A DNA stretch of 64,000 nt from Escherichia coli (lineage in GTDB: Bacteria; Pseudomonadota; Gammaproteobacteria; Enterobacterales; Enterobacteriaceae): assembly GCF_009931435.1 (NCBI RefSeq), contig NZ_CP043414.1; one strand, given 5' to 3'. This document shows positions 19,887-41,910 of the stretch, one piece after another. Position 1 is the stretch's first letter. Each line of letters starts with the position of its first letter. The notes under the pieces are model-generated. The model saw only the letters and a program-made list of their open reading frames with translations. It was not told where the DNA came from and did no database searches. Both the position numbers and the translations under genes were made by a program.

Positions 19887-20975
19887 TCACGGCAGGCGGT
19901 GGCGAGCTTGATAATAAGCCTGCCAGTGAGCTTCTTTATGTGTAGCGACACGTTGTTCGAAGTAACGGCGCAGACGTGCGCGATCTTCTTCGTTATCTTT
20001 GACGATGGTTCCGGCAATACAGTCCACCAGGTCGGCTGGCTCCCCCGCGCGATTCGCTAAAAACCAGGCGCGGACGCCCACGGCGTGGGCCACGTTAACG
20101 GCTTCAGCGGTGGACATAATCGCTGTAAAGGTATCCATTGAGGTTTTCTTTTCGCCGTTGGCACGCAGATCGCGGAAGGTGCGGACCAGTAACTCCAGTA
20201 CCGCGTCAGGCACTTTATGCGGAATGCCACTATGGGCCAATAAACGCGCCGAAGCACTGGCGACCAGTTCCAGTTCCTGGGCGAAATCCATAATCGGAAA
20301 GACAGTTTCAAAATCGAATCGACGTTTTAGTGCCGCGCTCATTTCATTAACGCCGCGATCGCGGGTATTGGCAGTGGCAATAATATTAAAGCCTTCTCGC
20401 GCATAGAGCTGACTGGCTTCACCAGTGAGTTCCGGCACCGTCATAACCCTGTCAGAAAGCATACCTAACAGACAGTCTTGTACTTCCAGTGGTGTACGCG
20501 TTATCTCTTCAAAACGGACAATTTTGCCGTCGCGCATTCCCTGGTAGAGCGGGGCAGGGACCAGCGCTTCCGTTGACGGACCATGATTAATAAGCAGGGC
20601 GTAGTTCCAGCCGTACTTGATTTGATCTTCGGTGGTAGATGCGCCGCCCTGGATAGTTAACCCAGCATCGCCGCTAATAGCGGTTGCCAGTAATTCAGAC
20701 AGGAGCGATTTTGCGGTGCCTGGTTCCCCCACCAACATCAAACCGCGCCCGGTAGCAAGAGTGACTAACATGCGTTCGACAGCGGAGGGACTAATCACGA
20801 CTTTACGGCTGATATTTTGCGCGCTATCGCCAAGAATAAAAGAACGGGCCGCAGGCAAACTTAACTGCCAACCGGGCGGGCAAGGTGCGTGATCATTTTG
20901 TTTTAATTTTGCCAGTTCATCGGCGTATAACACAGCGGCAGGTGGACGCTGCAGATGATTATTCTGCGGTGACAT
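19887..20975 (-). CDS. yehL: MoxR-like AAA+ ATPase YehL
   Basis: Walker A LVGEPGTAKS; start at MSPQNNHLQRPP has an AGGGA Shine-Dalgarno-like sequence upstream and gives 362 aa (the ORF-track start at 21041 has none). Confidence 0.8.
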   Translation of the reverse strand: MSPQNNHLQRPPAAVLYADELAKLKQNDHAPCPPGWQLSLPAARSFILGDSAQNISRKVVISPSAVERMLVTLATGRGLMLVGEPGTAKSLLSELLATAISGDAGLTIQGGASTTEDQIKYGWNYALLINHGPSTEALVPAPLYQGMRDGKIVRFEEITRTPLEVQDCLLGMLSDRVMTVPELTGEASQLYAREGFNIIATANTRDRGVNEMSAALKRRFDFETVFPIMDFAQELELVASASARLLAHSGIPHKVPDAVLELLVRTFRDLRANGEKKTSMDTFTAIMSTAEAVNVAHAVGVRAWFLANRAGEPADLVDCIAGTIVKDNEEDRARLRRYFEQRVATHKEAHWQAYYQARHRLP

Positions 20976-21094
20976 ATATTCATCCCTGAAATGTATTAAT
21001 GAAATAAAAGATATTTTACGCGCAATAAATGTTTGGCGCATTAGTTGTTTGAGCGGAAAATATCTGGAAAGCAGATCACAGTAAATAAAAAAAC

Positions 21095-21235
21095 CTGCTG
21101 GTGAGGCAGGTTCTTTTATTTACTACTTTCAGGCCTAACACCACGGCCTGTGCAACATCGTGTTCCAACGAACGAATTATAACCACCGCTGGACCCCGTT
21201 GCAATTAAGATAATGAGATTTATAATCCTGACAGT
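21095..21235 (-). ncRNA. orzO: Candidate OrzO antitoxin sRNA, copy 1 (boundaries approximate)
   Basis: On the minus strand the hairpin aacctgcctcaccagcaggtt is followed by a 7-T run, i.e. a terminator for a transcript running divergently from the zorO leader. Confidence 0.35.
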
Positions 21236-21407
21236 TGGGAGGTTGCGCCGGATCGAACCAATTTCAAGTCCTGGCTACCGGACGGGTGGTGCTGCAGGTG
21301 GTGCCCTGATCCGGAGTGCAACATCGTGGTCCAACATACGTAAACCAGTATCGACAGGCAGTGTAAGGGTAAGGTGCTGGTGTTGCGCTCCTTAATAAGG
21401 AGAGCGG

Positions 21408-21497
21408 ATGGACACGCTGACACAAAAGTTAACCGTGCTCATTGCCGTACTGGAGTTATTAGTGGCTCTGTTACGGTTGATTGATTTGTTGAAGTAA
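21408..21497 (+). CDS. zorO: Type I toxin ZorO, 29-aa hydrophobic peptide, copy 1
   Basis: atg..taa ORF encoding MDTLTQKLTVLIAVLELLVALLRLIDLLK, preceded by ggagag Shine-Dalgarno-like sequence and followed by hairpin gggggaaaataccgcttccccc plus T-tract; matches my recollection of ZorO. Confidence 0.75.
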   Translation: MDTLTQKLTVLIAVLELLVALLRLIDLLK

Positions 21498-21704
21498 CGG
21501 GCAAATTGAAACGCATCTAAGGGGGAAAATACCGCTTCCCCCTTTAATAAAATGATTACTGTTTTTAATAATTCATCATATAACTCATTTTTATTTATAA
21601 ATTCATCGATTTTATATTCAACGCACCATTTGACCGGGATGTAAATATTTATGGTGGGCTATTGGCAAAAAATATCTGGAAAGTAGATCGCAGAAAATAA
21701 AAGA

Positions 21705-21845
21705 ACCTGCTGGTGAGGCAGGTTCTTTTATTTACTACAGTGACGCTAACTTGCTGATTGTGCAACATTTCGTACCAACGAATAAATTATAACCATATCC
21801 ACACTCCATTGCAATTCAGTGAATGAGATTTATAATCCTGCCCGT
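21705..21845 (-). ncRNA. orzO: Candidate OrzO antitoxin sRNA, copy 2 (boundaries approximate)
   Basis: Same minus-strand hairpin plus U-rich tract as copy 1. Confidence 0.3.
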
Positions 21846-22017: not shown

Positions 22018-22107
22018 ATGGACACGCTGACACAAAAGTTAACCGTGCTCATTGCTGTACTGGAGCTATTAGTGGCTCTGTTACGGTTGATTGATTTGTT
22101 GAAGTAA
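22018..22107 (+). CDS. zorO: Type I toxin ZorO, copy 2
   Basis: Peptide identical to copy 1 despite synonymous nucleotide differences (gcc to gct, tta to cta). Confidence 0.75.
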   Translation: MDTLTQKLTVLIAVLELLVALLRLIDLLK

Positions 22108-22160
22108 CGGGCAAATTGAAACGCATCTAAGGGGGAATACCGTTTCCCCCTTTAATAAAG

Positions 22161-22481
22161 CTATTTTTCTATTTGTTGGATGAATATATTTTGTAGTTCA
22201 CGATTAAAAATTGCTATTACAGTTTTAGGTGATTCACCTCGTAATTTACGCTCATCAATAAATTCATCTCTTATATAAATCAACGCATCATTTATTAGCG
22301 GGTCGACATCTTCTCGATCACGTTGATGAAATGTTGGATGTAGCCGGAATCGCTCCAACCGGTAGACGGAACCAGTAAATAATTCAGAGCGTTTATGGAC
22401 CTCAAGTCTGAAGGAAAACGGATCTTCAGGTACAGGGTCCTCATAATCGTAAATAGCGACCAGCTCTTTTTGCACGATCAT
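22161..22481 (-). CDS. yehK: Small uncharacterised protein YehK
   Basis: 106-aa ORF downstream of yehI; acidic; no known motif. Confidence 0.7.
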   Translation of the reverse strand: MIVQKELVAIYDYEDPVPEDPFSFRLEVHKRSELFTGSVYRLERFRLHPTFHQRDREDVDPLINDALIYIRDEFIDERKLRGESPKTVIAIFNRELQNIFIQQIEK

Positions 22482-22540: not shown

Positions 22541-25500
22541 TTAATGGAAAATGACGTCGGGTGCGCTTAACGCCTCACTCAAATCAAACACATCAAGTGC
22601 GGCAAAAGTGACAGATTTATTGTCACGGTACACTCGAAGAGAACGGAAGCTCATTAGCGCTTTGCTATCAGCACTGTAGTGGTTAAAACCGGGTGAAAAC
22701 TTAAGGACCAGCCGATACTCGCCCAGGTCATAGACACATGCGTCCTCAAAACCTGACTCCCAGCCTTTGTATCGCATTCCCATAAGTTGCCCAACGGTTG
22801 CGGATTTACCTTCCCAGCGAGTCAGGCTGTTACTGGCTGACTCGTCAGGTGTGAGCAGCACTGTGCGCCGCATCAACTGGCGAAAAGGCGGCATAATTTC
22901 GTAATCGGCAAAAACCTGTGCAAATTCACTGCGCATTTCTGCTGTCATTTCTAACGGGTGGGCAATGCCAATCAGATCATCCGCAGGCAGGTCAATTGGC
23001 TCATCTTGTGCGTTGCAGAATTCCCCCTCTGCGGCCACACGAAAGGCGTTGAGTAAACGACGCGGTTCATTTGCCGGATAAACCGCCCATATTAATCGCT
23101 GAGTAACCAGGCGGGTAAAGGGATGATTAACAAACAGAGAATGAAAATCTGCCAGCGACCAGCGTCGGGTGGTGCGCAGGGCAGTTTCAAGACGTGGGAG
23201 CAGGTTTTTGCTCACCTGAGTGGCATCTTTTTTTAGCCCTTTTAGTCGGGCCAGTGCCTCGGGTGCTTTCAGTTGATCGTCATCGGCGCGCAACCGGGGA
23301 ACGCTTTTCTGGCGAACGTTTTGCTGATCAAAGATAACCGGGTTGAGGTTTTCATCGAAGCGAACGGTAAACTGCCGGGGTCCAAAATCAAATATCAACG
23401 CCTGCGGATCATCCAGGCCCAGTGTTGGGACTAATCTGTCCGCTAACTCTTCCTGGCTTAGTCCACGATTTTCTGCGACCACCTGAAGAAATTCCGCCGC
23501 GTTATCACGTAAGGGACGGGATTTCGCCCGTTGCGATATATGATGCAGCTGTATCAGCGCCATATCATTATTCATCAGGGTAAGTATGTTCAGGCCACTG
23601 ACGGCACGGGCAGATTTGCCTTCCTGTGGCCAGGCGAGGATCTGTGTTGTCAGATCCCGAGCCGTGCTTTCGTCACCAAAGAGACTTAACGCCAAAAAAG
23701 CCCAGTTGTCTTTTGCGGGGGCGCCAGCCTGTTGCCAGGCGGTGAAGAGATCCCTGGCAAAAGCGGCCAGCGTTTGTGGCTGGCAGAACGTTTTCAGTTG
23801 TTCCAGCCCACAATAAAAACGTCCGCCCTGGGTAAAGCGCAGCATTTCGCCGATAATTTCCAGAGCATCATCAGTAACAGGTTGATTATTCGTGATAATT
23901 CTCGGTCTGGACCACATTGTCGGATGCCAGAAATCAGGGGCTTTGGGAATGCGTGCCGGGTAAATGTCCATTGGACCCTGTTTAAGTAATTGCTCTAGGG
24001 AAGGCCATACATCTGTACGCTGCCAACGATTGGCTACAGTTTGTAGCAATTCGCCATGTCCTTGTTCGTAAAGTAAACGCAGGGCAAGTAATGCAGCTTC
24101 GCTATTATCGCTGGATTTGGTGTAGACAAGAGGGATAAGTGCCGTAGCCGTATGCTCCGGCCATTGTAAAATCCACTGGCGAGCCAGATTACGCTGGCCC
24201 GCAAAACGATGCCAGACGCGGGCAACGGGCAGAGCCAGTTCTGTTGCGCCAAAATGAATCAGCAGCGGAAATATCTCTTTGGGATGTCGGGCAAAGGCGG
24301 TGATTAATCCGGGCAAAGCATCGGTACCCAGGACACTTAACAGATATTCTACCCCGGTGTAATGAAAATCAGCCGCGACAATTTGTTGCCAGCACGATAC
24401 CGCCATTTCGCGCGGCATCTGCGCGATAAGGTACAGATTCCAAATCCCCCAACGCTTTTCATTACCATAGTAAAATCCGTGCTGAAAAGTTCGCCACCCT
24501 CCCATCAACGCAATGCTATCTTGTGCCAGTAATGATTTGGTGGCTTCTTCCCGGTACTGTTTAGATTTGGCCTGATGCGCGTGATAAGTATGCAAAAGTC
24601 CTATTGATGTGTATTCTTGCAGTTGCTGAGTATCAAAGGCATCCAGCTGTCCATTAAGAAGACGCTTATTAAATTCCAGGCTATGAACGTCAAAACCTAA
24701 TTCCCGCAAGAAGGTATCCGCCCCTCTGTTAGCAAGACGTTCGTCAAAAGACATGGCGCTAAAATGGTCAATTGCAGTTTGCTGTTCCGGCGTCCAGTGT
24801 TTATTCGGCGACTTGTACGCTTGCGGTACAAGCGTAAGTTCAGGTAGCGAAAAGTGAGTTATGGAAGTCTTTTTCCTGCCACGCCATGGTGGTGAAACGA
24901 GGATTTCAGGCAGACTGCTGTTATTGGTGCTATCAATAACCGGTTTTGGCGAAGCCGATAAATAACTATTCACCACTGCCCGGGCTTGAGTACTTAACGA
25001 CGGGATCACCTCTTCTGCCAGTTGTGGCTGCGATGCCATCAGCGTTTGTAACAGCGTATGCCAGTATTCATCACGTGCTTTTTGCTGTGCAGGCAGCTTT
25101 TTGTCTTCGATGATAGGATAACCAGGGCGCGCAGGGGGGGCTTTTAACGCCAGCAGTTCTGCCAGTGCGGCGAGCGTCGCATGGGGGAAGTTTTTACTGT
25201 ATTTAGCCACACGTTGCAGGCTGGGTTTGTTTTTATCAGCCACCAGTAGCAAGGTGCGGATGACTTGCGGATGGTTAATTTGTACCAGCAGACTGCCGCA
25301 ATCTTCTTTATGTGCATACATCGCGAGGCGCGGAACGGCTGCCAGTCCTTGTTCGCGCAAAAGGGCAGCGCAGGCCGCGTAGCCGAAGTGGTTTTCATGC
25401 GACATGTAGCTGGCTTCGCGATCGCTAAATATATCCTGACTCCAGTAGTGATCGAGTTTTCTGACCGCGCTGGGGTCATTAGCAACAACTTTTAACCACT

Positions 25501-26197
25501 CCTTAGAATGATAATGAGTCCGTGGGCATTCAAGGCCTATCAACTCATTGGCGATTTCTGGTTTCTCCGGGAGGATGAGTGCAATAAAAGGACGGCGAAC
25601 TTTGGGTATTCCTGGCAGTGCGGCAATGAGTTTGTCGGCGCAACGCTGCCAGCAGCTTTCCTCTGCCAGAGAGAGATGCTTACGCAGTCGGAGATCGAAT
25701 TCGTTATAGGTTTCTGAGCGATAACCATAGCCATAGCCATAGTCCTCCTTCTGATACTGCAATGTTACTACCAGAGGATCACTCTCATAACACCGTACAA
25801 TAAACTGGCGTGCAATCACCACCTCAGTCGCATATTCCAGCCCCTCTTGTTGGACGATTTCGTCGAGTAACTGTTGGCTATCATTTTGCGCGATACAGGC
25901 TAGCGCCGCCATTGTCCGGGCCGGAATTGAGGGTTTGTGCTCGCCGATCAAGTTGATGGCTTGCGTAATGGCCGACTGCCACTCCAGTGAAAAATTTTCA
26001 TAACGCCAGACAATGTTTTTTTTCTTCTCAGCAATGTGTAGCAATTTATCACCCAGTGTCTGGATGAGGCTTTCAGTGATAACAGGCACCGGTTCGCCCG
26101 GCCAATTGCGATGGCTGAGTGGTGTTTTGCCTTTTTTATATTTCAGTTCCAGTTGGGCGTTATCCGCCAGCCACGGTAATTCCTTGTCCATGCTCAT
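22541..26197 (-). CDS. yehI: Giant DUF4132-family protein YehI (no WGR domain)
   Basis: 1218-aa ORF; C-terminal region is paralogous to the two upstream genes (shared FDFGPRQFTV block); start is 4 bp from the upstream stop. Confidence 0.8.
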   Translation of the reverse strand: MSMDKELPWLADNAQLELKYKKGKTPLSHRNWPGEPVPVITESLIQTLGDKLLHIAEKKKNIVWRYENFSLEWQSAITQAINLIGEHKPSIPARTMAALACIAQNDSQQLLDEIVQQEGLEYATEVVIARQFIVRCYESDPLVVTLQYQKEDYGYGYGYRSETYNEFDLRLRKHLSLAEESCWQRCADKLIAALPGIPKVRRPFIALILPEKPEIANELIGLECPRTHYHSKEWLKVVANDPSAVRKLDHYWSQDIFSDREASYMSHENHFGYAACAALLREQGLAAVPRLAMYAHKEDCGSLLVQINHPQVIRTLLLVADKNKPSLQRVAKYSKNFPHATLAALAELLALKAPPARPGYPIIEDKKLPAQQKARDEYWHTLLQTLMASQPQLAEEVIPSLSTQARAVVNSYLSASPKPVIDSTNNSSLPEILVSPPWRGRKKTSITHFSLPELTLVPQAYKSPNKHWTPEQQTAIDHFSAMSFDERLANRGADTFLRELGFDVHSLEFNKRLLNGQLDAFDTQQLQEYTSIGLLHTYHAHQAKSKQYREEATKSLLAQDSIALMGGWRTFQHGFYYGNEKRWGIWNLYLIAQMPREMAVSCWQQIVAADFHYTGVEYLLSVLGTDALPGLITAFARHPKEIFPLLIHFGATELALPVARVWHRFAGQRNLARQWILQWPEHTATALIPLVYTKSSDNSEAALLALRLLYEQGHGELLQTVANRWQRTDVWPSLEQLLKQGPMDIYPARIPKAPDFWHPTMWSRPRIITNNQPVTDDALEIIGEMLRFTQGGRFYCGLEQLKTFCQPQTLAAFARDLFTAWQQAGAPAKDNWAFLALSLFGDESTARDLTTQILAWPQEGKSARAVSGLNILTLMNNDMALIQLHHISQRAKSRPLRDNAAEFLQVVAENRGLSQEELADRLVPTLGLDDPQALIFDFGPRQFTVRFDENLNPVIFDQQNVRQKSVPRLRADDDQLKAPEALARLKGLKKDATQVSKNLLPRLETALRTTRRWSLADFHSLFVNHPFTRLVTQRLIWAVYPANEPRRLLNAFRVAAEGEFCNAQDEPIDLPADDLIGIAHPLEMTAEMRSEFAQVFADYEIMPPFRQLMRRTVLLTPDESASNSLTRWEGKSATVGQLMGMRYKGWESGFEDACVYDLGEYRLVLKFSPGFNHYSADSKALMSFRSLRVYRDNKSVTFAALDVFDLSEALSAPDVIFH

Positions 26198-29989: not shown

Positions 29990-30001
29990 TGCTAATTCCT
30001 T

Positions 30002-33000
30002 TTAATTAAACAGTGATTCAATGTCGTTAATCAGCTCGCTGGCGGTGATGTCGTCGAGTACGGAGAAAGTGGGTGAGGATTGCTTACCATAGCGATCATA
30101 AGGGGCGGTGATTTTTACGCTTTCGACAGGCAGCAGGTCGCTATACCCCGTTTCGCCATAAATTAATGAAAAAGGTTCTGTTTCAAGTTCGAGAGCGCCA
30201 TAAGGGGTAGATTTGCGCATCGCATAGACGCTGCCGCTTTCTTCCAGACGTTGCCAGCCTCGGCGCTCTAGCCCGACAATACGTCCGGCCTGACAGAGCT
30301 GTCCTTGCCAGCGTGTCAGGTCGTGGGTATTCCGTTCATTATCAGCAAGACGATAACTACCACGATCGAGCTGTTGGAAGGGGGGAAGCAGTTCGTAATC
30401 AGCGTAAATTTGCCTGAATGCAGCGGCAGATTCAGGGGGGATTTCCAGCACATGCGGTATACCGATGTTTCCTGCTGGCAGCGTGAATAACTCATCCTGC
30501 ATATCGCTGTAAGTGCTGTCTTCTGCGACCCGGAAGCAGGCAATCAGCGTGTTTTCCTCAGTATATACTCCCCATAACAGCCGTCGGGTTAAGTGACGTA
30601 CCAGCGGATGCTCCACCAGAAACAGGCGGAACTGTTCTGCCGTCCAGCGTCTGCGCTGGCACATAGCCTGCTCCAGACGATCAATCTGCTGACTGGCAAT
30701 GGCGCGCACATCTTTCTTCAATTGTTTGAAGAGGTTAACGGCGTCAGTTGCCAGTGTTTTATCATCGCTCTGATTTGGTTTGGGTAAATCTTTCAGGACT
30801 TTGCCGTTTGCATCGCGCACTACAGGTTTTAAGGTTTCGTCAAAACCAACGGTGAATTGACGTGGGCCGAAATCCAGTATCAGCGAGCCACTGCTATCAA
30901 GCCCTAAATCTGAAGCCAGGCGGTCTTCCAGTTCAGCCATTGTCAGTCCGCGATTTTCGGCGACCATATTGATTTTGTCGCGGGCGTGTTCCTGCAATGC
31001 TTTGAATTTAATCTTTTGTGCAATGCCATTAAGCAGCATCAGCGCAATATCGCTACCGATACTGGCTAACACATCCAGCCCAGAAACCGCACGTTTATGC
31101 TGGGATTCACCCGGCCAGACCCGGATAAGCGGGGTTAGTTTACGCGCGGTGTCGTCATTGCCTAAAATCCCCAGCGAGGTAAATGCCCAGTTTTCTTTTG
31201 CGGGCGCGCCAGATTCCATCCATGCCGTGTAGAGATCCCAGCCAAAGTCAGCCAGTGATTCCCGGGTGAAGATTTCTCTAATGATATCCAGTCCAGCGTA
31301 GGCGGTAATGTCGCGAGGGAAGCTCAACATAGTGCCCAGGTGGCGCATAGCGTCATCGGACAGAGGCAGATTGTTACTTTTAAGCCGTGGTCTGCGCCAT
31401 AAGGTGAACTGATAAAAGCCGGGCAGTGGGGCGATTTTTGCGGGATATTCTTCCAGCGGATCGCTATCGAACAATGTTGCCAGCGCAGCTAAAACATCTG
31501 GTTGATTATATCCTTGGGCAATTTCCTCAATCGTTTCTCGCTGGTTTAAATTCACCAGCAGGCGAAGCGCCTGGCGGGCACAATCACGATCTTTTCCTTG
31601 TTTGCCCAGTGCCACAGGAAGTAGCCCGGCGGTGGCATGGCGTGGGTAATCAGTTAGCCAGTTTCGCGTATCTTCATAAGACATTTTTTTCTGTAATTGT
31701 TGCGCCATCGGTAAGGCCAGGTCACTGACACCGAGGAAAAAGGGGAAGAAGCACAGACGTCGTGGATCACGTTGCAGGCAGGTCATAAATGAAGGTATGG
31801 CGGCGCTACCAAAAATTGCCAGAATATTTCCCTCATCAGAGTAGTTATCTTCTTTGACTATCTGGTTAAGAAAAGAAATGGCCTGTTGACCAGGCAGGTA
31901 ACAGAGGGCAATGAGATTCCAGCTTTTGTATGCATTGTTATGGTATTGCACAAATTCAGCATTGAGTGCTGGAAAATCGAAGCGTAGCAGGGCATCAACG
32001 GCGCTTTGTGGCGCCGGAATTTTTTCGTAGATTTTTTCTCCGCTTTCCCGCCATTTTTCAAAACCAAGATGCCACAGTATTTGTTGCTCCGGTGTAAGCG
32101 GTATTAAGTGTTTCTCCCAGCTTGCTTTTTTTATCGGCGGCAGGTCGGTAAACAATGTTTGTTTTGTCGCCTGCTGTTGGGCTATTTGCTGGAAGCGGGT
32201 GACAAGGTAAGTACGGGTTAGTCTTTTGGCAATCTCGGGAGTGACATCAGAAACAGAAGGAACTGGAAGCACTGGAAGATCAAACACAGGCGTATTTTTC
32301 TTTTTCTCTTTGGTCATCCAGGGCGGCGAAACAAACAGCTCCGGCAACATATCCACAGTGGCATATTCACATTCTTCAGCTACTGGCTGCGGACGACATT
32401 CAGATAAGATGCCTGCCGCTTTAGCATTAACCCAGGGAATGACGTCACATACCAACTCTGGCCTGATGGTAATCAGTTTGATAAGTGCGTTACGCCACTG
32501 TGCATCTTCGTGTATTGCAAGCAAAGTAGCATAAGCGGCAATAGCTGCAGCGGGATGTTTTTGACAGGCTTTGCTTAAGTATTCCAGGTGCTTTTTCTTG
32601 CCAATCACAGCGAGGATCAGAATTTGAATCGCATCCGGGTGATTCGTTTTCCATAGCCATTTGACAAGATTTTCAGTCTCGCTGTTGCGCTCGAAAAGAT
32701 AAGTGGGATTGTCAGAATGCTCTTCCGTAAACTCAAGAAGGATCTGGCTTACACCCCGAATTCCATTATTCGCCAGCAACATTGCCAGATAAGCGCGAAA
32801 ATTACGAAAATCACGATACAACGGTGGGAAGTCGTATTTTTCCACTGTACTCAGAGCAGTATCATCGGTTATCACCAGTCTTAACCAGGTCATCGCCGGA
32901 ACGTTTTGGTCTGCATAGCGTAGAGCCATAGCATTGGCAATATCCGGGCGTTCAGGGAGCAGTAACGCGGCAAAAGGTTGCCGTGCTGGAGATAGCGAGG

Positions 33001-33811
33001 GAATAGCCGCGAGTACTTTATCTACACAGCGTTGCCACTCATCTTCTGAAGTGAGTGAAAGATGATGACATAGACGTTGATGCCAACTAGGTAGCGATTC
33101 TGCTTCGTGATTAGGTGGAATGATGGTGGTTACTGCGCCTTTTACTGGTTTATATTTGAGTTGAATAGCGAGAAGGGCAATTTCAACGGCACTTTCCAGA
33201 CCACAGCGAATGACTAAGTCATCGACCAATTCATCTGCAGAGTAAGAGTTCCAAAAACTCCAAAGCAATGCTGCATCAGATTGCGCACTTCCTGTCTGTT
33301 GACTACCCAGAATTCGCATTTGTAACTCAGCAAACGCCTGCTGCCAGTTTTCTGGATAAGAACGGTAATTGTTGTCGGGATCATATGCCCTGGTGTTATC
33401 TGCAATACGCTTCCATATCTCACCGTCTTTGCGCAGATAATTGATCTCTCTGGGGCGAGAGCGATGTGGAAAAGCAAATCGGTTAATATCGTCGGTTAGC
33501 GGAATGGCTGCATCATCAGCCAGCCATGGGCGTTTGTTTTTACTCTCAGGTGAAGTTTCAACTTCAGGAGTGACTTTGGTGACGGGGGGGATATGCACGT
33601 TTGCCGAAGCGTCTTCCACATAGCCTTTTTTCGTTTTCTCAGCGATAAGCTTCAGTTCCGCTTTTTCCGCCGCCGCAGCATCCGCAAAGCTTTTTATCTG
33701 GCTTTGCCCTTGGGTGCCAACTTTTCCCCAACTGATATGCAACTCGTTACCTTGCTGCCCCACCGCCCAGAATTTATGCGATTTTTCGTCCTGATAGATA
33801 TAACTCTTCAT
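30002..33811 (-). CDS. WGR-domain plus DUF4132 protein, molR/yehH-like paralog B (intact)
   Basis: 1269-aa ORF; N-terminal 65 aa nearly identical to paralog A; agggaa Shine-Dalgarno-like sequence upstream; C-terminus ends LDDITASELINDIESLFN. Confidence 0.8.
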   Translation of the reverse strand: MKSYIYQDEKSHKFWAVGQQGNELHISWGKVGTQGQSQIKSFADAAAAEKAELKLIAEKTKKGYVEDASANVHIPPVTKVTPEVETSPESKNKRPWLADDAAIPLTDDINRFAFPHRSRPREINYLRKDGEIWKRIADNTRAYDPDNNYRSYPENWQQAFAELQMRILGSQQTGSAQSDAALLWSFWNSYSADELVDDLVIRCGLESAVEIALLAIQLKYKPVKGAVTTIIPPNHEAESLPSWHQRLCHHLSLTSEDEWQRCVDKVLAAIPSLSPARQPFAALLLPERPDIANAMALRYADQNVPAMTWLRLVITDDTALSTVEKYDFPPLYRDFRNFRAYLAMLLANNGIRGVSQILLEFTEEHSDNPTYLFERNSETENLVKWLWKTNHPDAIQILILAVIGKKKHLEYLSKACQKHPAAAIAAYATLLAIHEDAQWRNALIKLITIRPELVCDVIPWVNAKAAGILSECRPQPVAEECEYATVDMLPELFVSPPWMTKEKKKNTPVFDLPVLPVPSVSDVTPEIAKRLTRTYLVTRFQQIAQQQATKQTLFTDLPPIKKASWEKHLIPLTPEQQILWHLGFEKWRESGEKIYEKIPAPQSAVDALLRFDFPALNAEFVQYHNNAYKSWNLIALCYLPGQQAISFLNQIVKEDNYSDEGNILAIFGSAAIPSFMTCLQRDPRRLCFFPFFLGVSDLALPMAQQLQKKMSYEDTRNWLTDYPRHATAGLLPVALGKQGKDRDCARQALRLLVNLNQRETIEEIAQGYNQPDVLAALATLFDSDPLEEYPAKIAPLPGFYQFTLWRRPRLKSNNLPLSDDAMRHLGTMLSFPRDITAYAGLDIIREIFTRESLADFGWDLYTAWMESGAPAKENWAFTSLGILGNDDTARKLTPLIRVWPGESQHKRAVSGLDVLASIGSDIALMLLNGIAQKIKFKALQEHARDKINMVAENRGLTMAELEDRLASDLGLDSSGSLILDFGPRQFTVGFDETLKPVVRDANGKVLKDLPKPNQSDDKTLATDAVNLFKQLKKDVRAIASQQIDRLEQAMCQRRRWTAEQFRLFLVEHPLVRHLTRRLLWGVYTEENTLIACFRVAEDSTYSDMQDELFTLPAGNIGIPHVLEIPPESAAAFRQIYADYELLPPFQQLDRGSYRLADNERNTHDLTRWQGQLCQAGRIVGLERRGWQRLEESGSVYAMRKSTPYGALELETEPFSLIYGETGYSDLLPVESVKITAPYDRYGKQSSPTFSVLDDITASELINDIESLFN

Positions 33812-33951
33812 CCGCGTTCCCTGTATTTATATCCAGTTATAAGCGGATGCTAGCAGTTAATGAAAAAAATTAAGAGCGTTGAACAAACAAGAAAACAACT
33901 TTAGGAATTCATAAAGAAAAGGCGCTGTCGATGCAGCGCCTTGAAGGGGGA

Positions 33952-35985
33952 TTATTTCACCTGATGGCCCGGTTTAGCACCGGCATCCGGGCTTAGCAGG
34001 AAAATATCTTTCCCGCCAGGACCGGCAGCCATCACCATGCCTTCAGAGATACCGAAGCGCATTTTACGTGGTGCCAGGTTAGCCACCATAATGGTGTGAC
34101 GACCAATAAGTGCCTGCGGATCCGGGTAAGCAGAACGAATGCCGGAGAAGACATTGCGTTTTTCACCGCCGAGATCCAGTGTCAGGCGCAGCAGTTTGTC
34201 AGAACCTTCAACAAACTCTGCGTTTTCAATCAGCGCCACGCGCAGGTCAACTTTAGCGAAGTCGTCAAAGGTGATGGTTTCCTGAATCGGATCATCTGCC
34301 AGCGGGCCAGTCACGGGGGCGGCAGTGGCTTTCACTTCTTCTTTAGACGCTTCCACCAGTGCTTCAACCTGCTTCATATCGATGCGGTTATACAGCGCCT
34401 TGAACGGATTCACTTTGTGGCCCAGCAGCGGTTGCTGGATGCCATCCCAGGTCAGTTCCGTATTGAGGAATGCTTCTGCACGCTCGGTCAGTTTTGGCAG
34501 TACCGGCTTCAGGTAAGTCATCAGTACGCGGAACAGGTTAATGCCCATAGAGCAAATCGCCTGCAGGTCAGCATCGCGACCTTCCTGCTTCGCCACCACC
34601 CACGGAGCCTGTTCATCGACATAGCGGTTAGCCAGGTCAGCCAGTGCCATGATTTCGCGCACTGCTTTACCAAATTCACGGCTTTCCCATGCTTCACCAA
34701 TCACTTCAGCGGCATCCGTGAAGGTTTTGTACAACTGCGGGTCAGCCAGTTCGCTTGCCAGCACGCCGTCAAAACGTTTGTTGATAAAGCCTGCGTTACG
34801 GGACGCCAGATTAACCACTTTGTTGACGATATCGGCATTCACACGCTGAACGAAATCTTCCAGGTTGAGATCGATATCATCAATGCGCGAAGAGAGTTTC
34901 GCAGTGTAGTAGTAACGCAGGCTGTCAGCGTCAAAATGATTCAGCCAGGTGCTGGCTTTAATAAAGGTGCCGCGAGACTTGGACATCTTCGCGCCGTTCA
35001 CCGTTACATAGCCGTGAACAAACAGGTTGGTCGGCTTGCGGAAGTTGCTACCTTCCAACATGGCAGGCCAGAACAGGCTGTGGAAGTAAACAATATCTTT
35101 ACCGATGAAGTGGTACAGCTCGGCGGTGGAGTCTTTCTTCCAGTATTCATCGAAGCTTACGCTGTCGCCGCGCTTGTCACACAGATTCTTGAAAGAACCC
35201 ATGTAGCCAATCGGTGCGTCCAGCCAGACGTAGAAATATTTGCCCGGCGCGTTCGGAATTTCAAAACCGAAGTACGGTGCATCGCGGGAGATATCCCATT
35301 GTTGCAGGCCAGATTCAAACCACTCCTGCATTTTGTTTGCCACCTGCTCCTGCAACGCACCGCTGCGGGTCCATGCCTGCAGCATTTCGCTGAAAGAGGG
35401 CAGATCAAAGAAGAAGTGTTCAGAATCACGCATTACCGGGGTAGCGCCAGAAACCACCGATTTCGGCTCGATCAGTTCAGTCGGGCTATATGTTGCGCCG
35501 CAGACTTCACAGTTATCGCCGTATTGATCCGGTGATTTACATTTCGGGCAGGTGCCTTTCACAAAACGGTCCGGCAGGAACATGCCTTTTTCCGGATCGT
35601 ACAGTTGAGAGATGGTGCGGTTTTTAATAAAACCGTTTTCCTTCAGGCGAGTATAGATAAGCTCAGACAACTGACGGTTCTCTTCACTGTGCGTCGAGTG
35701 ATAGTTGTCATAGCTGATGTTAAAGCCTGCGAAATCAGTCTGATGCTCCTGACTCATTTCGCCAATCATCTGCTCCGGAGTGATACCAAGCTGCTGAGCT
35801 TTCAGCATGATTGGTGTACCGTGGGCATCGTCGGCGCAGATGAAGTTGACCTCGTGGCCGCGCATTCGCTGGTAACGGACCCAGACATCAGCCTGGATGT
35901 GCTCCAGCATATGGCCGAGGTGGATTGAGCCGTTAGCGTACGGCAGTGCGCACGTCACCAGAATTTTCTTCGCGACTTGAGTCAT
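33952..35985 (-). CDS. metG: Methionine--tRNA ligase
   Basis: Start [29 protein letters not shown] (HIGH motif) gives 677 aa; KMSKS motif present. Confidence 0.95.
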
Positions 35986-36152
35986 AGTAGGCATTACTTC
36001 TTTGTAGTGAAAAGGGCTTAGATAGTACCAAATGGGGCATGGTTACGTAAGTCCTGTGCAAGCATCTTATGATGCATTATTAGGTAAGTACTTAGCTGTT
36101 AACTTCAGGTAAACTAATAGCGATAAGTTATCTTTATAAATAAGGAGTCGGG

Positions 36153-37262
36153 ATGAACGAACAATCCCAGGCCAAATCACCAGAAGCCCTGCGCGCAATG
36201 GTCGCCGGGACACTGGCCAATTTTCAGCACCCAACCCTCAAGCATAACCTCACCACGCTGAAAGCGTTGCACCATGTCGCCTGGATGGACGACACGCTGC
36301 ATGTGGAACTGGTTATGCCGTTCGTATGGCATAGCGCGTTCGAAGAGTTAAAAGAGCAATGTAGCGCCGAACTGCTGCGCATTACCGGGGCGAAAGCTAT
36401 CGACTGGAAACTGTCGCACAATATCGCCACCTTAAAACGCGTGAAGAATCAGCCGGGAATTAACGGCGTGAAGAACATCATTGCGGTCAGCTCCGGTAAA
36501 GGCGGCGTGGGTAAATCCTCCACGGCGGTAAATCTGGCGCTGGCACTGGCGGCGGAAGGGGCGAAAGTCGGCATTCTGGACGCCGATATCTACGGCCCAT
36601 CAATACCCACCATGCTGGGCGCAGAAAATCAGCGTCCAACTTCGCCGGACGGTACCCATATGGCACCGATTATGTCTCATGGACTGGCAACCAATTCAAT
36701 TGGTTATCTGGTCACTGACGACAATGCGATGGTGTGGCGTGGTCCGATGGCGAGCAAGGCGTTAATGCAGATGTTGCAGGAAACCTTGTGGCCGGATCTC
36801 GACTATCTGGTGCTTGATATGCCGCCAGGCACCGGTGACATTCAATTGACACTGGCACAAAACATTCCAGTAACTGGCGCGGTAGTGGTCACCACCCCGC
36901 AGGACATTGCGTTGATCGATGCGAAAAAAGGCATTGTGATGTTCGAGAAAGTCGAGGTTCCGGTGCTCGGTATTGTCGAGAACATGAGTGTGCATATTTG
37001 CAGTAACTGTGGTCACCATGAACCGATTTTCGGTACCGGTGGTGCAGAGAAACTGGCCGAGAAATACCACACGCAGTTGCTGGGGCAGATGCCGTTACAC
37101 ATTTCCTTACGTGAAGATCTCGATAAAGGCACGCCAACAGTTATCAGCCGTCCGGAGAGCGAATTTACTGCTATCTACCGCCAGCTGGCTGACCGCGTTG
37201 CAGCCCAGCTTTATTGGCAGGGAGAAGTCATTCCTGGCGAGATTTCCTTCCGCGCGGTCTGA
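36153..37262 (+). CDS. mrp: Fe-S cluster carrier ATPase Mrp/ApbC
   Basis: 369-aa ORF; P-loop SGKGGVGKSS; CxxC motif (CSNCGHH). Confidence 0.9.
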   Translation: MNEQSQAKSPEALRAMVAGTLANFQHPTLKHNLTTLKALHHVAWMDDTLHVELVMPFVWHSAFEELKEQCSAELLRITGAKAIDWKLSHNIATLKRVKNQPGINGVKNIIAVSSGKGGVGKSSTAVNLALALAAEGAKVGILDADIYGPSIPTMLGAENQRPTSPDGTHMAPIMSHGLATNSIGYLVTDDNAMVWRGPMASKALMQMLQETLWPDLDYLVLDMPPGTGDIQLTLAQNIPVTGAVVVTTPQDIALIDAKKGIVMFEKVEVPVLGIVENMSVHICSNCGHHEPIFGTGGAEKLAEKYHTQLLGQMPLHISLREDLDKGTPTVISRPESEFTAIYRQLADRVAAQLYWQGEVIPGEISFRAV

Positions 37263-37289
37263 CGCGCATTAACCTTTTTGGTTGTTTTT

Positions 37290-37342
37290 TATACACCGCA
37301 GAGATGTTACATTGATGCGGTGTATTTGTTTTTGCCGCATTA
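37290..37342 (+). terminator. Rho-independent terminator after mrp
   Basis: Hairpin acaccgcagagatgttacattgatgcggtgt followed by tttgttttt. Confidence 0.5.
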
Positions 37343-37524
37343 ATGAACACTTATTTAATGCTGCGAATATTCTGCGGACCTTCGTCCGAAACTCTATAAA
37401 GTCGATTGATCGTACAGGCAATGCATCATTATCATCCTTCGTGGCTGTGTAGTGGATGTACAGCTATAGTTTGTTATGCACTCATTCTATCCAGGCATAA
37501 CCTTTACTACAGGGATAACGTTCA

Positions 37525-37806
37525 ATGAATAAGTACTGGCTGTCAGGAATTATTTTTCTTGCCTATGGAATGGCTTCTCCCGCGTTCTCTTCACAGACTG
37601 CCACATTAACGATTAATGGCAGGATCAGTCCCCCAACATGCAGTATGGCTATGGTTAATGGTCAACCTCAACAGCATTGTGGTCAGTTAACGTATGATGT
37701 TGATACCCGTCATCAGGTTTCTTCGCCAGTCAAAGGTGTGACGACAGAAGTGGTTGTTGCAGGTAGCGATAGCAAACGTCGAATCGTGTTAAATCGCTAC
37801 GATTAA
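37525..37806 (+). CDS. yehE: Small secreted protein YehE
   Basis: 93-aa ORF with N-terminal signal peptide, upstream of the fimbrial operon. Confidence 0.75.
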   Translation: MNKYWLSGIIFLAYGMASPAFSSQTATLTINGRISPPTCSMAMVNGQPQQHCGQLTYDVDTRHQVSSPVKGVTTEVVVAGSDSKRRIVLNRYD

Positions 37807-38101
37807 TTTGCCACCCTGGTTTTTTAAGCGGATTTAGAAAGCTGAAATCATTCGTGTGAATGATTTCAGCTTTTTTATTGATATTAATAATACCATTTAA
37901 AAAAATCTGCATTAATTAATAGATGTGATAAATATTTAATATGCTTAAGTATTTGTTGTATTTATATTGCAATAGTTAATTTGTTTTAAATCAATAAAAC
38001 AATATGTTTACATTGCGGCAACTTTTTTGATGTGAGAAATTTGTTTCCAAGAGATACAGACTCTTAACAACCAAAAAATAAATTTTATTAAGGGACATAT
38101 T

Positions 38102-38644
38102 ATGAAACGTTCAATTATTGCTGCCGCTGTCTTTTCTTCTTTTTTTATGAGCGCTGGGGTATTTGCCGCAGACGTTGATACCGGAACATTAACCATTAAA
38201 GGGAATATTGCAGAATCTCCGTGTAAATTCGAAGCGGGTGGCGATTCAGTAAGTATTAATATGCCAACTGTACCAACCACTGTCTTTGAAGGTAAAGCTA
38301 AATACTCGACCTATGATGATGCAGTCGGTGTAACCAGCAGCATGTTAAAAATTAGCTGTCCGAAAGAAGTTGCTGGTGTAAAACTCTCGTTGATTACCAA
38401 CGATAAAATAACCGGAAACGATAAGGCGATAGCCAGTAGCAACGATACCGTGGGGTACTATCTCTATTTAGGTGATAACAGCGATGTCCTGGATGTTTCT
38501 GCACCTTTTAACATTGAAAGTTATAAAACAGCGGAAGGTCAATATGCTATTCCGTTTAAAGCAAAATACCTGAAGCTGACAGATAATTCAGTGCAATCAG
38601 GTGATGTGTTATCTTCTCTGGTTATGCGTGTGGCGCAGGATTAA
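38102..38644 (+). CDS. yehD: Chaperone-usher fimbrial major subunit
   Basis: 180-aa ORF with signal peptide and fimbrial subunit architecture. Confidence 0.85.
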   Translation: MKRSIIAAAVFSSFFMSAGVFAADVDTGTLTIKGNIAESPCKFEAGGDSVSINMPTVPTTVFEGKAKYSTYDDAVGVTSSMLKISCPKEVAGVKLSLITNDKITGNDKAIASSNDTVGYYLYLGDNSDVLDVSAPFNIESYKTAEGQYAIPFKAKYLKLTDNSVQSGDVLSSLVMRVAQD

Positions 38645-38659
38645 TAAATAAAATTTCAA

Positions 38660-38712
38660 ATTTCTCCAGGTAATAAACATGGCCGCTATCCCCATGGCGG
38701 CCTTTTAATTTA
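38660..38712 (+). terminator. Intra-operon hairpin (attenuator) after yehD
   Basis: Palindrome ggccgctatccccatggcggcc followed by ttttaattt. Confidence 0.5.
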
Positions 38713-38724
38713 AGAGGCATTAAG

Positions 38725-39399
38725 ATGAAAGGATTATTAGCTTTACTCATTTCTTCTATGGTCCTTCCTGCACATGCCGGTATTGTCATCTACGGGACGC
38801 GTATTATTTACCCGGCAGAAAACAAAGAAGTGACGGTGCAGTTGATGAATCAGGGAAACCGTTCTTCGCTGCTGCAGGCGTGGATTGATGATGGCGATAC
38901 GTCGTTACCACCAGAAAAAATTCAGGTTCCTTTCATGTTAACGCCACCAGTGGCAAAAATAGGGGCAAATTCCGGGCAGCAAGTAAAAATCAAAATTATG
39001 TCGAATAAACTGCCCACTAATAAAGAGAGCATTTTTTATCTGAATGTTCTGGATATTCCACCAAATAGTCCAGAGCAAGAGGGCAAGAATGCACTGAAAT
39101 TTGCAATGCAAAACAGAATCAAATTGTTTTACCGGCCTGCGGGTATTGCACCGGTAAATAAAGCGACATTTAAAAAGTTACTGGTAAATCGCAGTGGCAA
39201 TGGATTGGTGATAAAAAATGACTCAGCAAATTGGGTAACGATTTCGGATGTCAAAGCTAATAATGTCAAAGTCAATTATGAAACTATTATGATTGCCCCC
39301 TTAGAAAGTCAGAGTATTAATGTCAAAAGTAATAATGCGAATAACTGGTATCTGACCATTATCGATGACCATGGCAACTATATTAGTGACAAAATTTAA
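38725..39399 (+). CDS. yehC: Periplasmic fimbrial chaperone (PapD-like); start uncertain
   Basis: 224-aa ORF with signal peptide and chaperone-like sequence. Confidence 0.8.
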   Translation: MKGLLALLISSMVLPAHAGIVIYGTRIIYPAENKEVTVQLMNQGNRSSLLQAWIDDGDTSLPPEKIQVPFMLTPPVAKIGANSGQQVKIKIMSNKLPTNKESIFYLNVLDIPPNSPEQEGKNALKFAMQNRIKLFYRPAGIAPVNKATFKKLLVNRSGNGLVIKNDSANWVTISDVKANNVKVNYETIMIAPLESQSINVKSNNANNWYLTIIDDHGNYISDKI

Positions 39400-41895
39400 T
39401 TGCAGGAGCTGCCTATGTTGAGAATGACCCCACTTGCATCAGCAATCGTAGCGTTATTGCTCGGCATTGAAGCTTATGCAGCTGAAGAAACCTTTGATAC
39501 CCATTTTATGATAGGTGGAATGAAAGACCAGCAGGTTGCAAATATTCGTCTTGATGATAATCAACCCTTGCCGGGGCAGTATGACATCGATATTTATGTC
39601 AATAAGCAATGGCGCGGGAAATATGAGATTATTGTTAAAGACAACCCGCAAGAAACATGTTTATCAAGGGAAATTATCAAGCGGTTAGGCATTAATACCG
39701 ATAACTTTGCCAGCGGTAAGCAATGTTTAACATTTGAGCAACTTGTTCACGGTGGGAGATATACCTGGGATATCGGAGTTTTTCGTCTCGATTTCAGTGT
39801 ACCGCAGGCGTGGGTGGAGGAACTGGAAAGTGGCTATGTTCCACCGGAAAACTGGGAGCGGGGTATTAATGCGTTTTATACCTCTTATTATGTGAGTCAG
39901 TATTACAGCGACTATAAAGCGTCGGGTAATAGCAAGAGTACATATGTACGTTTTAACAGCGGGTTAAATTTACTGGGGTGGCAACTGCATTCTGATGCCA
40001 GTTTCAGTAAAACAAATAGCAATCCAGGGGTGTGGAAAAGCAATACCCTGTATCTGGAACGTGGATTTGCCCAACTTCTCGGCACGCTTCGCGTGGGTGA
40101 TATGTACACATCAAGCGATATTTTCGATTCTGTTCGCTTCAGCGGTGTGCGGTTGTTTCGTGATATGCAGATGTTGCCTAACTCGAAACAAAATTTTACT
40201 CCACGGGTGCAGGGGATTGCTCAGAGTAACGCGCTGGTAACGATTGAACAGAACGGTTTTGTGGTTTATCAGAAAGAGGTTCCTCCTGGCCCGTTTGCGA
40301 TTACAGATTTGCAGTTGGCCGGTGGTGGAGCAGATCTTGATGTCAGCGTGAAAGAGGCGGACGGTTCGGTAACCACCTATCTGGTGCCTTATGCAGCAGT
40401 GCCGAATATGCTGCAACCCGGCGTGTCGAAATATGATTTTGCGGCAGGTCGTAGCCATATTGAAGGGGCGAGCAAACAAAGTGATTTTGTTCAGGCGGGT
40501 TATCAGTATGGTTTTAATAACTTATTGACGCTGTATGGCGGATCGATGGTCGCGAATAATTATTACGCGTTCACTTTGGGCACAGGCTGGAATACACGCA
40601 TTGGTGCCATTTCCGTCGATGCCACGAAGTCGCATAGTAAACAAGACAACGGCGATGTGTTTGACGGGCAAAGTTATCAAATTGCCTACAACAAATTTGT
40701 GAGCCAAACGTCGACGCGTTTTGGTCTGGCGGCCTGGCGTTATTCGTCGCGTGATTACCGGACATTTAACGATCACGTTTGGGCAAACAATAAAGATAAT
40801 TATCGCCGTGATGAAAACGATATCTATGACATTGCCGATTATTACCAGAACGATTTTGGCCGTAAAAATAGCTTTTCTGCCAATATGAGCCAGTCATTGC
40901 CAGAAGGCTGGGGTTCTGTGTCCTTAAGTACGTTATGGCGAGATTACTGGGGGCGTAGCGGCAGCAGTAAGGATTATCAGTTGAGTTATTCCAACAACCT
41001 GCGACGGATAAGCTATACCCTCGCGGCAAGCCAGGCTTATGACGAGAATCATCATGAAGAGAAACGTTTTAATATTTTTATATCGATTCCCTTTGATTGG
41101 GGTGATGACGTTACGACGCCTCGTCGGCAAATATATATGTCTAACTCAACGACGTTTGATGATCAGGGTTTTGCCTCAAATAATACGGGATTATCGGGAA
41201 CCGTTGGAAGCCGGGATCAATTTAACTATGGGGTCAACCTGAGTCATCAGCATCAGGGAAATGAAACGACAGCTGGAGCGAATTTAACCTGGAACGCGCC
41301 GGTGGCAACGGTGAATGGCAGTTATAGTCAGTCGAGTACTTATCGACAGGCTGGAGCCAGTCTTTCAGGGGGCATTGTCGCCTGGTCGGGTGGCGTTAAT
41401 CTGGCGAACCGTCTTTCCGAAACGTTTGCTGTGATGAATGCGCCAGGAATTAAAGATGCTTATGTCAATGGGCAAAAATATCGCACAACAAACCGTAATG
41501 GAGTGGTGGTATACGACGGAATGACACCTTATCGGGAAAATCACCTGATGCTGGATGTGTCGCAAAGCGATAGCGAAGCAGAATTACGTGGCAACCGGAA
41601 CATTGCCGTCCCTTTTCGCGGCGCGGTTGTACTGGTTAATTTTGATACCGATCAGCGCAAGCCCTGGTTTATAAAAGCGTTAAGAGCGGATGGGCAACCA
41701 TTAACGTTTGGTTATGAAGTCAATGATATCCACGGTCACAATATTGGTGTTGTCGGTCAGGGAAGCCAGTTATTTATCCGCACTAATGATGTACCGCCAT
41801 CGGTTAATGTGGCAATTGATAAACAACAAGGGCTCTCATGCACAATCACCTTCGGTAAAGAGATTGATGAAAATAGGAATTATATTTGCCAGTAA
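39400..41895 (+). CDS. yehB: Outer-membrane fimbrial usher; start uncertain
   Basis: 831-aa ORF, beta-barrel usher architecture, immediately after the chaperone. Confidence 0.85.
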   Translation: MQELPMLRMTPLASAIVALLLGIEAYAAEETFDTHFMIGGMKDQQVANIRLDDNQPLPGQYDIDIYVNKQWRGKYEIIVKDNPQETCLSREIIKRLGINTDNFASGKQCLTFEQLVHGGRYTWDIGVFRLDFSVPQAWVEELESGYVPPENWERGINAFYTSYYVSQYYSDYKASGNSKSTYVRFNSGLNLLGWQLHSDASFSKTNSNPGVWKSNTLYLERGFAQLLGTLRVGDMYTSSDIFDSVRFSGVRLFRDMQMLPNSKQNFTPRVQGIAQSNALVTIEQNGFVVYQKEVPPGPFAITDLQLAGGGADLDVSVKEADGSVTTYLVPYAAVPNMLQPGVSKYDFAAGRSHIEGASKQSDFVQAGYQYGFNNLLTLYGGSMVANNYYAFTLGTGWNTRIGAISVDATKSHSKQDNGDVFDGQSYQIAYNKFVSQTSTRFGLAAWRYSSRDYRTFNDHVWANNKDNYRRDENDIYDIADYYQNDFGRKNSFSANMSQSLPEGWGSVSLSTLWRDYWGRSGSSKDYQLSYSNNLRRISYTLAASQAYDENHHEEKRFNIFISIPFDWGDDVTTPRRQIYMSNSTTFDDQGFASNNTGLSGTVGSRDQFNYGVNLSHQHQGNETTAGANLTWNAPVATVNGSYSQSSTYRQAGASLSGGIVAWSGGVNLANRLSETFAVMNAPGIKDAYVNGQKYRTTNRNGVVVYDGMTPYRENHLMLDVSQSDSEAELRGNRNIAVPFRGAVVLVNFDTDQRKPWFIKALRADGQPLTFGYEVNDIHGHNIGVVGQGSQLFIRTNDVPPSVNVAIDKQQGLSCTITFGKEIDENRNYICQ

Positions 41896-41910
41896 TAATC
41901 GGGTGGCTCT

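Follow-up and report, generated by a model that had tools for sequence, protein, structure and literature searches.

The yehL gene, its upstream spacer, and the zor-orz units beyond it were examined within a 64,000-nucleotide stretch of Escherichia coli DNA (hereafter the window). The features that make up the yehL side of the locus are as follows.

19887-20975, minus strand: yehL, encoding a 362-aa AAA_5/MoxR-like ATPase (open reading frame list, RefSeq length, Pfam).
20976-21060, minus strand: the flagged interval, which is the proximal three-quarters of the yehL leader/promoter region, GC 31%.
20976-21085, minus strand: the whole spacer, from the mapped Orz 3' end (21086) up to the yehL ATG (alignment, Rfam coordinates, Term-seq).
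21057-21085, minus strand: the best sigma-70-like candidate for a yehL promoter, a position weight matrix (PWM) prediction with -35 TTTACT (21085-21080), 17 nt, and -10 TATTTT (21062-21057).
21080-21124, minus strand: the Orz intrinsic terminator (inverted repeat I2, terminator scan, fold, Term-seq).
21086-21169, minus strand: the gene for the yehL-proximal Orz antitoxin sRNA (the OrzP-position copy), ~84 nt and co-directional with yehL.

YehL matches Pfam AAA_5 with an E-value of 1.6e-34, and the stop codon of its gene overlaps the start of yehM. The start codon at 20975, as given in the original prediction, is the one used by RefSeq, which annotates yehL with identical length and start in every E. 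coli locus fetched, and a tblastn comparison with Klebsiella aligned from residue 1. The claim that less than 90 bp separate yehL from the first zor-orz repeat was likewise borne out: 20976-21056 is unique sequence of 81 bp, and the repeat unit starts at 21057 as direct repeat D2 (21057-21126 / 21669-21738), with 21057-21060 being its opening bases. The yehL leader has a GC content of 32%, versus 53% in yehL. An inverted repeat in this region (I6, 21009-21025 / 21049-21065) was considered as an RNA structure or operator and rejected as evidence, as the 141-nt yehL leader showed no significant RNA structure (z = -0.48; 60 of 200 shuffles folded at least as well).

Beyond the proximal sRNA gene, the yehK-yehL spacer measures 1,185 bp in total and includes a tandem duplication of ~610 bp (units from 21057 and 21669). 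The following features lie on this side of the locus.

21176-21204, minus strand: the proximal orz promoter, TTGCAA-17-TATAAT, with the top PWM score (14.9).
21199-21226, plus strand: the proximal zor promoter, TTGCAA-16-TATAAT, back-to-back with the orz promoter.
21316-21335, plus strand: the stretch of the proximal zor leader that Orz targets, able to pair over 20 nt (1 mismatch) with the 5' part of the proximal Orz.
21408-21497, plus strand: the proximal zor open reading frame, 29 aa, MDTLTQKLTVLIAVLELLVALLRLIDLLK, a ZorO-type peptide at the zorP position.
21555-21631, minus strand: a decayed partial yehK copy in the inter-unit spacer, homologous to 22216-22293.
21699-21772, minus strand: the distal Orz sRNA gene (the OrzO-position copy), matching the full-length Rfam model with 87.3 bits (21772 to 21699).
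22018-22107, plus strand: the distal zor open reading frame (ZorO), 29 aa, MDTLTQKLTVLIAVLELLVALLRLIDLLK.
22161-22481, minus strand: yehK, 106 aa, GC 38%, no Pfam match, found in Escherichia only and part of the inserted segment.
22541-26197, minus strand: yehI (DUF4132), 1,218 aa, the ancestral immediate upstream neighbour of yehL.

The proximal orz matches the Rfam family OrzO-P (RF02083, gathering score 60 bits) over the full-length model with 98.9 bits (21162 to 21087, minus strand). Divergent orz and zor promoters, with TTGCAA/TATAAT on both strands, occur in both units (21176-21226 and 21786-21836). Pairing between each Orz and the leader of its cognate zor extends over 20 nt in the proximal unit and 18 nt in the distal unit, with 1 mismatch each, whereas non-cognate pairing reaches at most 10 nt; both cognate pairs pass the published rule of at least 15 nt of continuous complementarity or at least 17 nt with one internal mismatch (PMC11264685). 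Because Zor open reading frames, Rfam Orz matches, back-to-back promoters, and cognate pairing are all present, the locus is, as judged from its sequence, a bona fide two-copy zor-orz type I toxin-antitoxin locus.

Both Zor peptides of the window are identical to ZorO of O157:H7 (Thr3). Strains O157:H7 and TW08637 carry ZorP (Ser3) beside yehL, where the window has the ZorO type, though its proximal Orz is of the P type. The U-tract of the distal orz terminator is broken in the window (CUUUUAUUUU): a C interrupts it within the tail at 21688-21712 (GGUUCUUUUAUUUU), where O157:H7 has U7. A copy of the promoter-like TTTTCT-17-TATTTT also sits in this duplicated distal tail; it would face the yehK fragment, on the strand opposite to the proximal zor. 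The yehK fragment itself aligns locally to yehK with a score of 30, versus a shuffle maximum of 18 (0 of 1,000 shuffles reach 30), so the duplicated unit comprised orz-zor plus the 3' part of yehK rather than the toxin-antitoxin pair alone. At 22150-22175, past the distal zor terminator and short of the yehK stop, the window is missing ~52 bp that E. coli strains have; the segment forms an 18-bp inverted repeat in Nissle, possibly a yehK terminator.

A putative orzO terminator at about 21097 had been predicted to point toward yehL. The hairpin is real and lies on the minus strand facing yehL, and only its name has to be changed, to that of the OrzP-position copy. In O157:H7 FRIK804 the yehL-proximal Zor is ZorP (MDS..., T3S) and the proximal orz is base-for-base the K-12 orphan OrzP, so that the yehL-proximal terminator is that of the OrzP-position gene; zorO/orzO form the yehK-proximal pair in O157:H7. 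The names follow the assignment of zorO to z3289 and zorP to z3290 (PMC3919570), and the K-12 orphan was named OrzPmg by the Fozo laboratory since it is equal to EDL933 OrzP (PMC11264685). The proximal orz of the window differs from OrzP by 2 substitutions in the sRNA body, and the distal copy has an O-type body.

The core of the proximal Orz terminator is a GC-rich 7-bp stem (21092-21098 / 21106-21112) with a 7-nt loop, and A/U pairing lengthens its arms to about 20 bp (21080-21098 / 21106-21124). The structure folds with -24.5 kcal/mol and is followed on the minus strand by the U-tract (U7) UUUUUUUAUUU. Since the sequence is symmetric, the terminator looks bidirectional. Term-seq in K-12 placed an RNA 3' end at MG1655 position 2,204,485 (supplementary files 1 and 3 of PMC7815308), which lies 111 nt ahead of the yehL ATG. 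This end, which comes from a sheet other than that for LB OD 0.4, corresponds to 21086 in the window, after U7A (...GGUUUUUUUA / ...CAGCAGGUUUUUUUA), and read counts at the site are low, about 1,000. With a start near 21169, as predicted from the promoter, the mapped end gives a proximal Orz of 84 nt, which agrees with the Orz bands of ~85 nt on northern blots in EHEC (PMC2887945). OrzP was confirmed by northern blot as a discrete species in MG1655 (PMC11264685), and Orz sRNAs are plentiful in exponential phase and drop in stationary phase (PMC2887945). The data show that the proximal sRNA runs co-directionally with yehL and stops 111 nt ahead of the yehL ATG, at a strong intrinsic terminator.

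A second K-12 Term-seq end lies 150 nt before yehL (LB OD 0.4, MG1655 2,204,446; PMC7815308). It corresponds to 21125 in the window, past the first Orz hairpin (...GGCCUGAAAAU), and implies a ~45-nt 5' fragment of OrzP. Its Rho score is 0.47 (called 'No') and its intrinsic-terminator score is low (1.24); as it is neither Rho-dependent nor a good match to an intrinsic terminator, it is probably a processed species.

A scan of a genome collection for YehL returned 25 loci, 22 of them outside Escherichia. In 20 of the 22 non-Escherichia loci, a co-oriented yehI homologue stops 11-316 nt ahead of yehL, and yehM and yehP come after it; these loci range over Klebsiella, Intestinirhabdus, Erwinia, Serratia, Stenotrophomonas, Acidovorax, and metagenome-assembled genomes of deltaproteobacteria and Acidobacteria. 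None of the non-Escherichia loci has yehK, zor, or orz, and the yehI-yehL gap in Escherichia is 1.1-1.6 kb. The proteins of the cassette have Pfam domains DUF4132 (YehI), AAA_5 (YehL), DUF5682 (YehM), and VWA_CoxE (YehP), YehK has none, and PADLOC gave no match for YehI, K, L, M, or P. Because outgroups have a short yehI-yehL gap free of yehK, zor, and orz, gene order indicates that the inserted segment is yehK plus zor/orz, which is AT-rich and splits an ancestral yehI-yehL-yehM-yehP cassette. The locus is also found in E. fergusonii (PMC2887945), so the insertion event is old.

The leader of E. coli yehL resembles those of the outgroups by eye only. Homology with the Klebsiella, Intestinirhabdus, Erwinia, and Serratia leaders, which would have marked the boundary of the insertion and revealed an ancestral promoter, was rejected, as the alignments are at chance (z about 0; in the best case 23 of 500 shuffles), versus a score of 31 against 7.8 in a control alignment of Klebsiella with Klebsiella. 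In the Klebsiella oxytoca group (L028 / L007 3770-4000), yehI is followed by a terminator-like hairpin (AATATTCGACTCA...TGAGTCGAATATT GGCTTTTT) in the 230-nt yehI-yehL spacer, which also has a perfect TATAAT ~95 nt before yehL, so some outgroups may transcribe yehL apart from yehI.

Within Escherichia, the junction spanning the yehL 5' end, leader, orz, and divergent promoters (20880-21240) is contiguous in 5,188 of 5,426 complete E. coli genomes (95.6%), and it is also present in three other Escherichia species and in zor-less strains. The distance from the proximal orz end to the yehL ATG is 111 nt in K-12, O157:H7, Nissle, Escherichia sp. MOD1-EC7003, and E1V33, counted from the Rfam model end at 21087 (Rfam hit coordinates, 6 loci). 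In E. whittamii it is 122 nt owing to an 11-nt insertion (TATTTACTTAC), which is the sole length change seen in the leader among Escherichia. The leader sequence is near-invariant across the genus, the sequences being too close to tell constraint from recency. The flagged 85 bp are most of this fixed, AT-rich, 111-nt leader/promoter region, which reaches from the Orz 3' end to the yehL start codon.

The idea that a strain-variable insertion adjoins the yehL promoter is misleading in view of this conservation, and the expectation that strains without the insertion would have yehK as the immediate upstream neighbour of yehL proved wrong in every case examined. K-12 keeps orz and its terminator: its yehK-yehL spacer of 306 bp contains the entire orz (Rfam 99.9 bits) with its terminator, the two divergent promoters, and the first part of the zor leader, after which the sequence jumps to just past the yehK stop. 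This 'orz-only' state occurs in ~30% of E. coli, and >99% of such genomes have the same 27-29-nt remnant (PMC11264685). For MG1655, a delta-orzPmg strain exists that lacks the promoter and the first 34 nt and retains the terminator. Inspection of the weakest junction matches among the 5,426 genomes turned up no intact yehL with yehK upstream and without orz and the terminator; the two weakest are IS1 deletions that truncate or remove yehL itself. The junction is old and essentially fixed in the genus Escherichia, and our data show it to be kept even after loss of all zor. A comparison of strains with and without zor-orz would therefore be uninformative, because the element adjoining yehL stays the same in both.

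Escherichia sp. E1V33 (L006 3816-3889) has a single-copy locus with an O-type orz body beside yehL, followed by the usual terminator and leader. The junction is thus independent of which copy survives, and copies can be lost by recombination between units with the yehL junction untouched. The best identity of the window to any of the 5,426 complete E. coli genomes is 96.0% over 12 kb (30000-42000; metG, apbC, yehA-D), and its yehK-yehL spacer is ~98% identical to that of some E. coli; on these identities a divergent Escherichia lineage, and not O157:H7, is the apparent source of the window. Signs of decay occur elsewhere, with an internal stop that makes yehM a pseudogene in the annotation of O157:H7 FRIK804 and a frameshift in the yehK of Nissle.

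A sigma-70 consensus scan of the yehL strand in the leader (20976-21086) found no site with 9 of 12 matches. The best candidate, TTTACT-17-TATTTT, has a predicted start near 21050 (-75), and its -35 element starts one base past the sRNA 3' end. With a heuristic PWM based on hexamer frequencies from the literature, it scores 11.16, the 99.997th percentile of the window and second only to the orz promoter. It is retained as a candidate only: striking against the window as a whole, it does not stand out from the local composition, since 16.8% of shuffles of the 116-nt leader that preserve dinucleotides score as high. The -35 element also varies, being TTTTTT in Nissle and TTTTCT in E1V33, and in E. 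whittamii the additional 11 nt disrupt the distance between the two elements. In MG1655, where the -111 offset puts the yehL ATG at 2,204,596, candidate starts fall at about 2,204,521 (-75) and about 2,204,565 (-31), and the orz start falls at about 2,204,402.

Published transcription data bear on yehL in part. H-NS binding is confined to the intergenic region at yehL/yehM, and both genes are up in a K-12 hns/stpA mutant (Ueda et al., PMC3686432, Fig. 3C), a result that fits a promoter in the leader and the orz promoter alike. DirectRNA-seq coverage around the -150 end, given as small counts in 800-nt windows, is 20 reads upstream and 37 downstream without bicyclomycin, and 83 and 72 with it. 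Coverage is not lower downstream, which argues weakly for yehL transcripts that start from or near the intergenic region and not from yehI-yehK. yehL is absent from the SMRT-Cappable-seq supplements, a literature search on the yehL promoter or operon found only unrelated papers, and yehL expression is not discussed in the zor-orz papers PMC11264685 (in which yehL is mentioned 0 times), PMC3919570, and PMC2887945.

We consider it on balance probable, by a modest degree, that yehLMPQ is insulated by the Orz terminator and has a weak promoter of its own, which lies in AT-rich DNA and is silenced by H-NS. The orz terminator (two in series in two-copy strains) would shield yehLMPQ from transcription from orz and from yehI-yehK, and the low-level transcripts of the cassette would start from this weak promoter at some point of the AT-rich intergenic DNA. 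Terminator read-through would contribute little, if anything. The strength of the terminator is judged here from its sequence and fold; if a few per cent of the transcripts from the strong orz promoter passed it, their output could match or surpass that of a silenced promoter.

It is unlikely, though a reading of some weight, that there is no functional relationship at all: yehLMPQ would be silenced and largely cryptic, and its adjacency to orz an accident of where yehK-zor-orz landed. The H-NS silencing of the region (PMC3686432) is compatible with this, as are the decay in some lineages (FRIK804 yehM, Nissle yehK, IS1 deletions of yehL) and the low Term-seq read count of about 1,000 at the site. 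What speaks against it is that most genomes, like the window, have intact yehL, yehM, and yehP and that the leader is nearly invariant across Escherichia species, though the sequences are too close to part constraint from recency.

Still less probable, in our judgement, is that read-through sustains the cassette, with the orz promoter having become the effective yehLMPQ promoter after the insertion. Most transcripts would stop as the ~84-nt sRNA and a fraction would continue into yehLMPQ mRNA, making the sRNA gene an attenuator-type leader. The orz promoter is indeed the strongest sigma-70 match in the region, the 111-nt leader holds no statistically convincing promoter, and transcription from yehI-yehK would be stopped by the two consecutive orz terminators, although coverage on the yehL side is not lower. 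H-NS binding to the intergenic region and the de-repression of yehL/yehM without H-NS (PMC3686432) would also fit. However, the terminator looks efficient (7-bp GC-rich core, ~20 bp when extended, -24.5 kcal/mol, U7), and the only Orz species reported are discrete, at ~85 nt. OrzP is easily detected in wild-type K-12, whereas yehL/yehM are up only without H-NS, which suggests different control. The 100% conservation of orzP and its promoter in zor-less strains, the reasons for which the authors left open (PMC11264685), is a further point in favour of read-through, but >99% of orz-only genomes have the same deletion end-point, and the retention of orzP may be plain common descent.

We regard as quite doubtful a broader scenario in which the insertion cost yehLMPQ its upstream transcription and the orz unit was co-opted as promoter and attenuator. 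The level of yehLMPQ expression would then depend on leakage through the Orz hairpin, or else on interference at a promoter that overlaps the hairpin tail, and this cis role, as opposed to control of a toxin, would explain why the ~30% of E. coli without any zor gene have preserved orzP together with its promoter and terminator.

We hold it to be very improbable that polymerases pausing or terminating at the orz terminator occlude an abutting yehL promoter, so that yehLMPQ expression would be at its minimum in exponential phase, when Orz peaks. The top-scoring promoter-like site of the yehL strand does overlap the terminator tail and the repeat boundary, and Orz is abundant in exponential phase and less so in stationary phase, but the candidate promoter is a prediction that is not significant against local composition, and a terminator placed ahead of a promoter normally shields it from occlusion and does not cause it.

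The zor-orz locus, its site beside yehL, the K-12 orphan OrzP, and the RNA 3' end upstream of yehL have already been published. Only the regulatory link to yehL proposed in the original prediction is new, and it is unsupported. The analysis has corrective value in that the terminator is assigned to OrzP, the junction is fixed in the genus, and the true insertion includes yehK. The cassette that is split here (DUF4132, MoxR-like AAA, DUF5682, and VWA) is otherwise contiguous across phyla. If the orz unit did drive or gate yehLMPQ, the conservation of an orphan type I antitoxin would have an explanation in cis, and the locus would be an example of an sRNA gene re-wiring an interrupted operon.

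Tandem-promoter interference, by occlusion or as a 'sitting duck', is known for bacterial promoters. The yehL locus is like such systems in having an active upstream promoter that points in the same direction as a weak downstream gene ~200 nt away. It is unlike them in that a strong intrinsic terminator, the classical preventer of interference, lies between the two and in that the yehL promoter is a predicted one.

Among type I toxin-antitoxin systems, tisB-istR1 and shoB-ohsC likewise have an sRNA that is divergent from the toxin gene and pairs with a long toxin 5' UTR (PMC2887945); they lie in other chromosomal contexts, and no link to a co-directional downstream operon has been described for them. 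The closest two-copy counterpart is zor-orz of O157:H7 EDL933 (zorO/orzO = z3289/sRNA-1; zorP/orzP = z3290/sRNA-2; Fozo et al. 2010, PMC2887945; Wen et al. 2014, PMC3919570), for which ZorO toxicity and its rescue by OrzO were shown by experiment (PMC3919570). It occupies the same site, between yehI/yehK and yehL, and shares with the window the tandem two-copy arrangement, the 29-aa Zor, the divergent Orz, the back-to-back promoters, and the cognate-specific pairing. EDL933-like strains have ZorP (T3S) beside yehL, whereas the window has the ZorO type in both copies; the window further differs in that its flanking genes are at most 96% identical to complete E. coli and in that ~52 bp before yehK are missing.

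The K-12 ends at -111 and -150 upstream of yehL appear in the catalogue of Adams et al. 2021 (PMC7815308) as 'orphan, upstream ORF'. These labels are purely positional, given to ends <200 bp from a start codon and assigned to no annotated gene (PMC7815308), and orzP had no K-12 annotation when they were set. OrzPmg of MG1655 and other 'orz-only' strains (mSystems 2024, PMC11264685) is both the positional and the sequence counterpart of the proximal copy in the window, with the same terminator and the same 111 nt to yehL; orz-only strains have it without a cognate zor, whereas the window still has zor.
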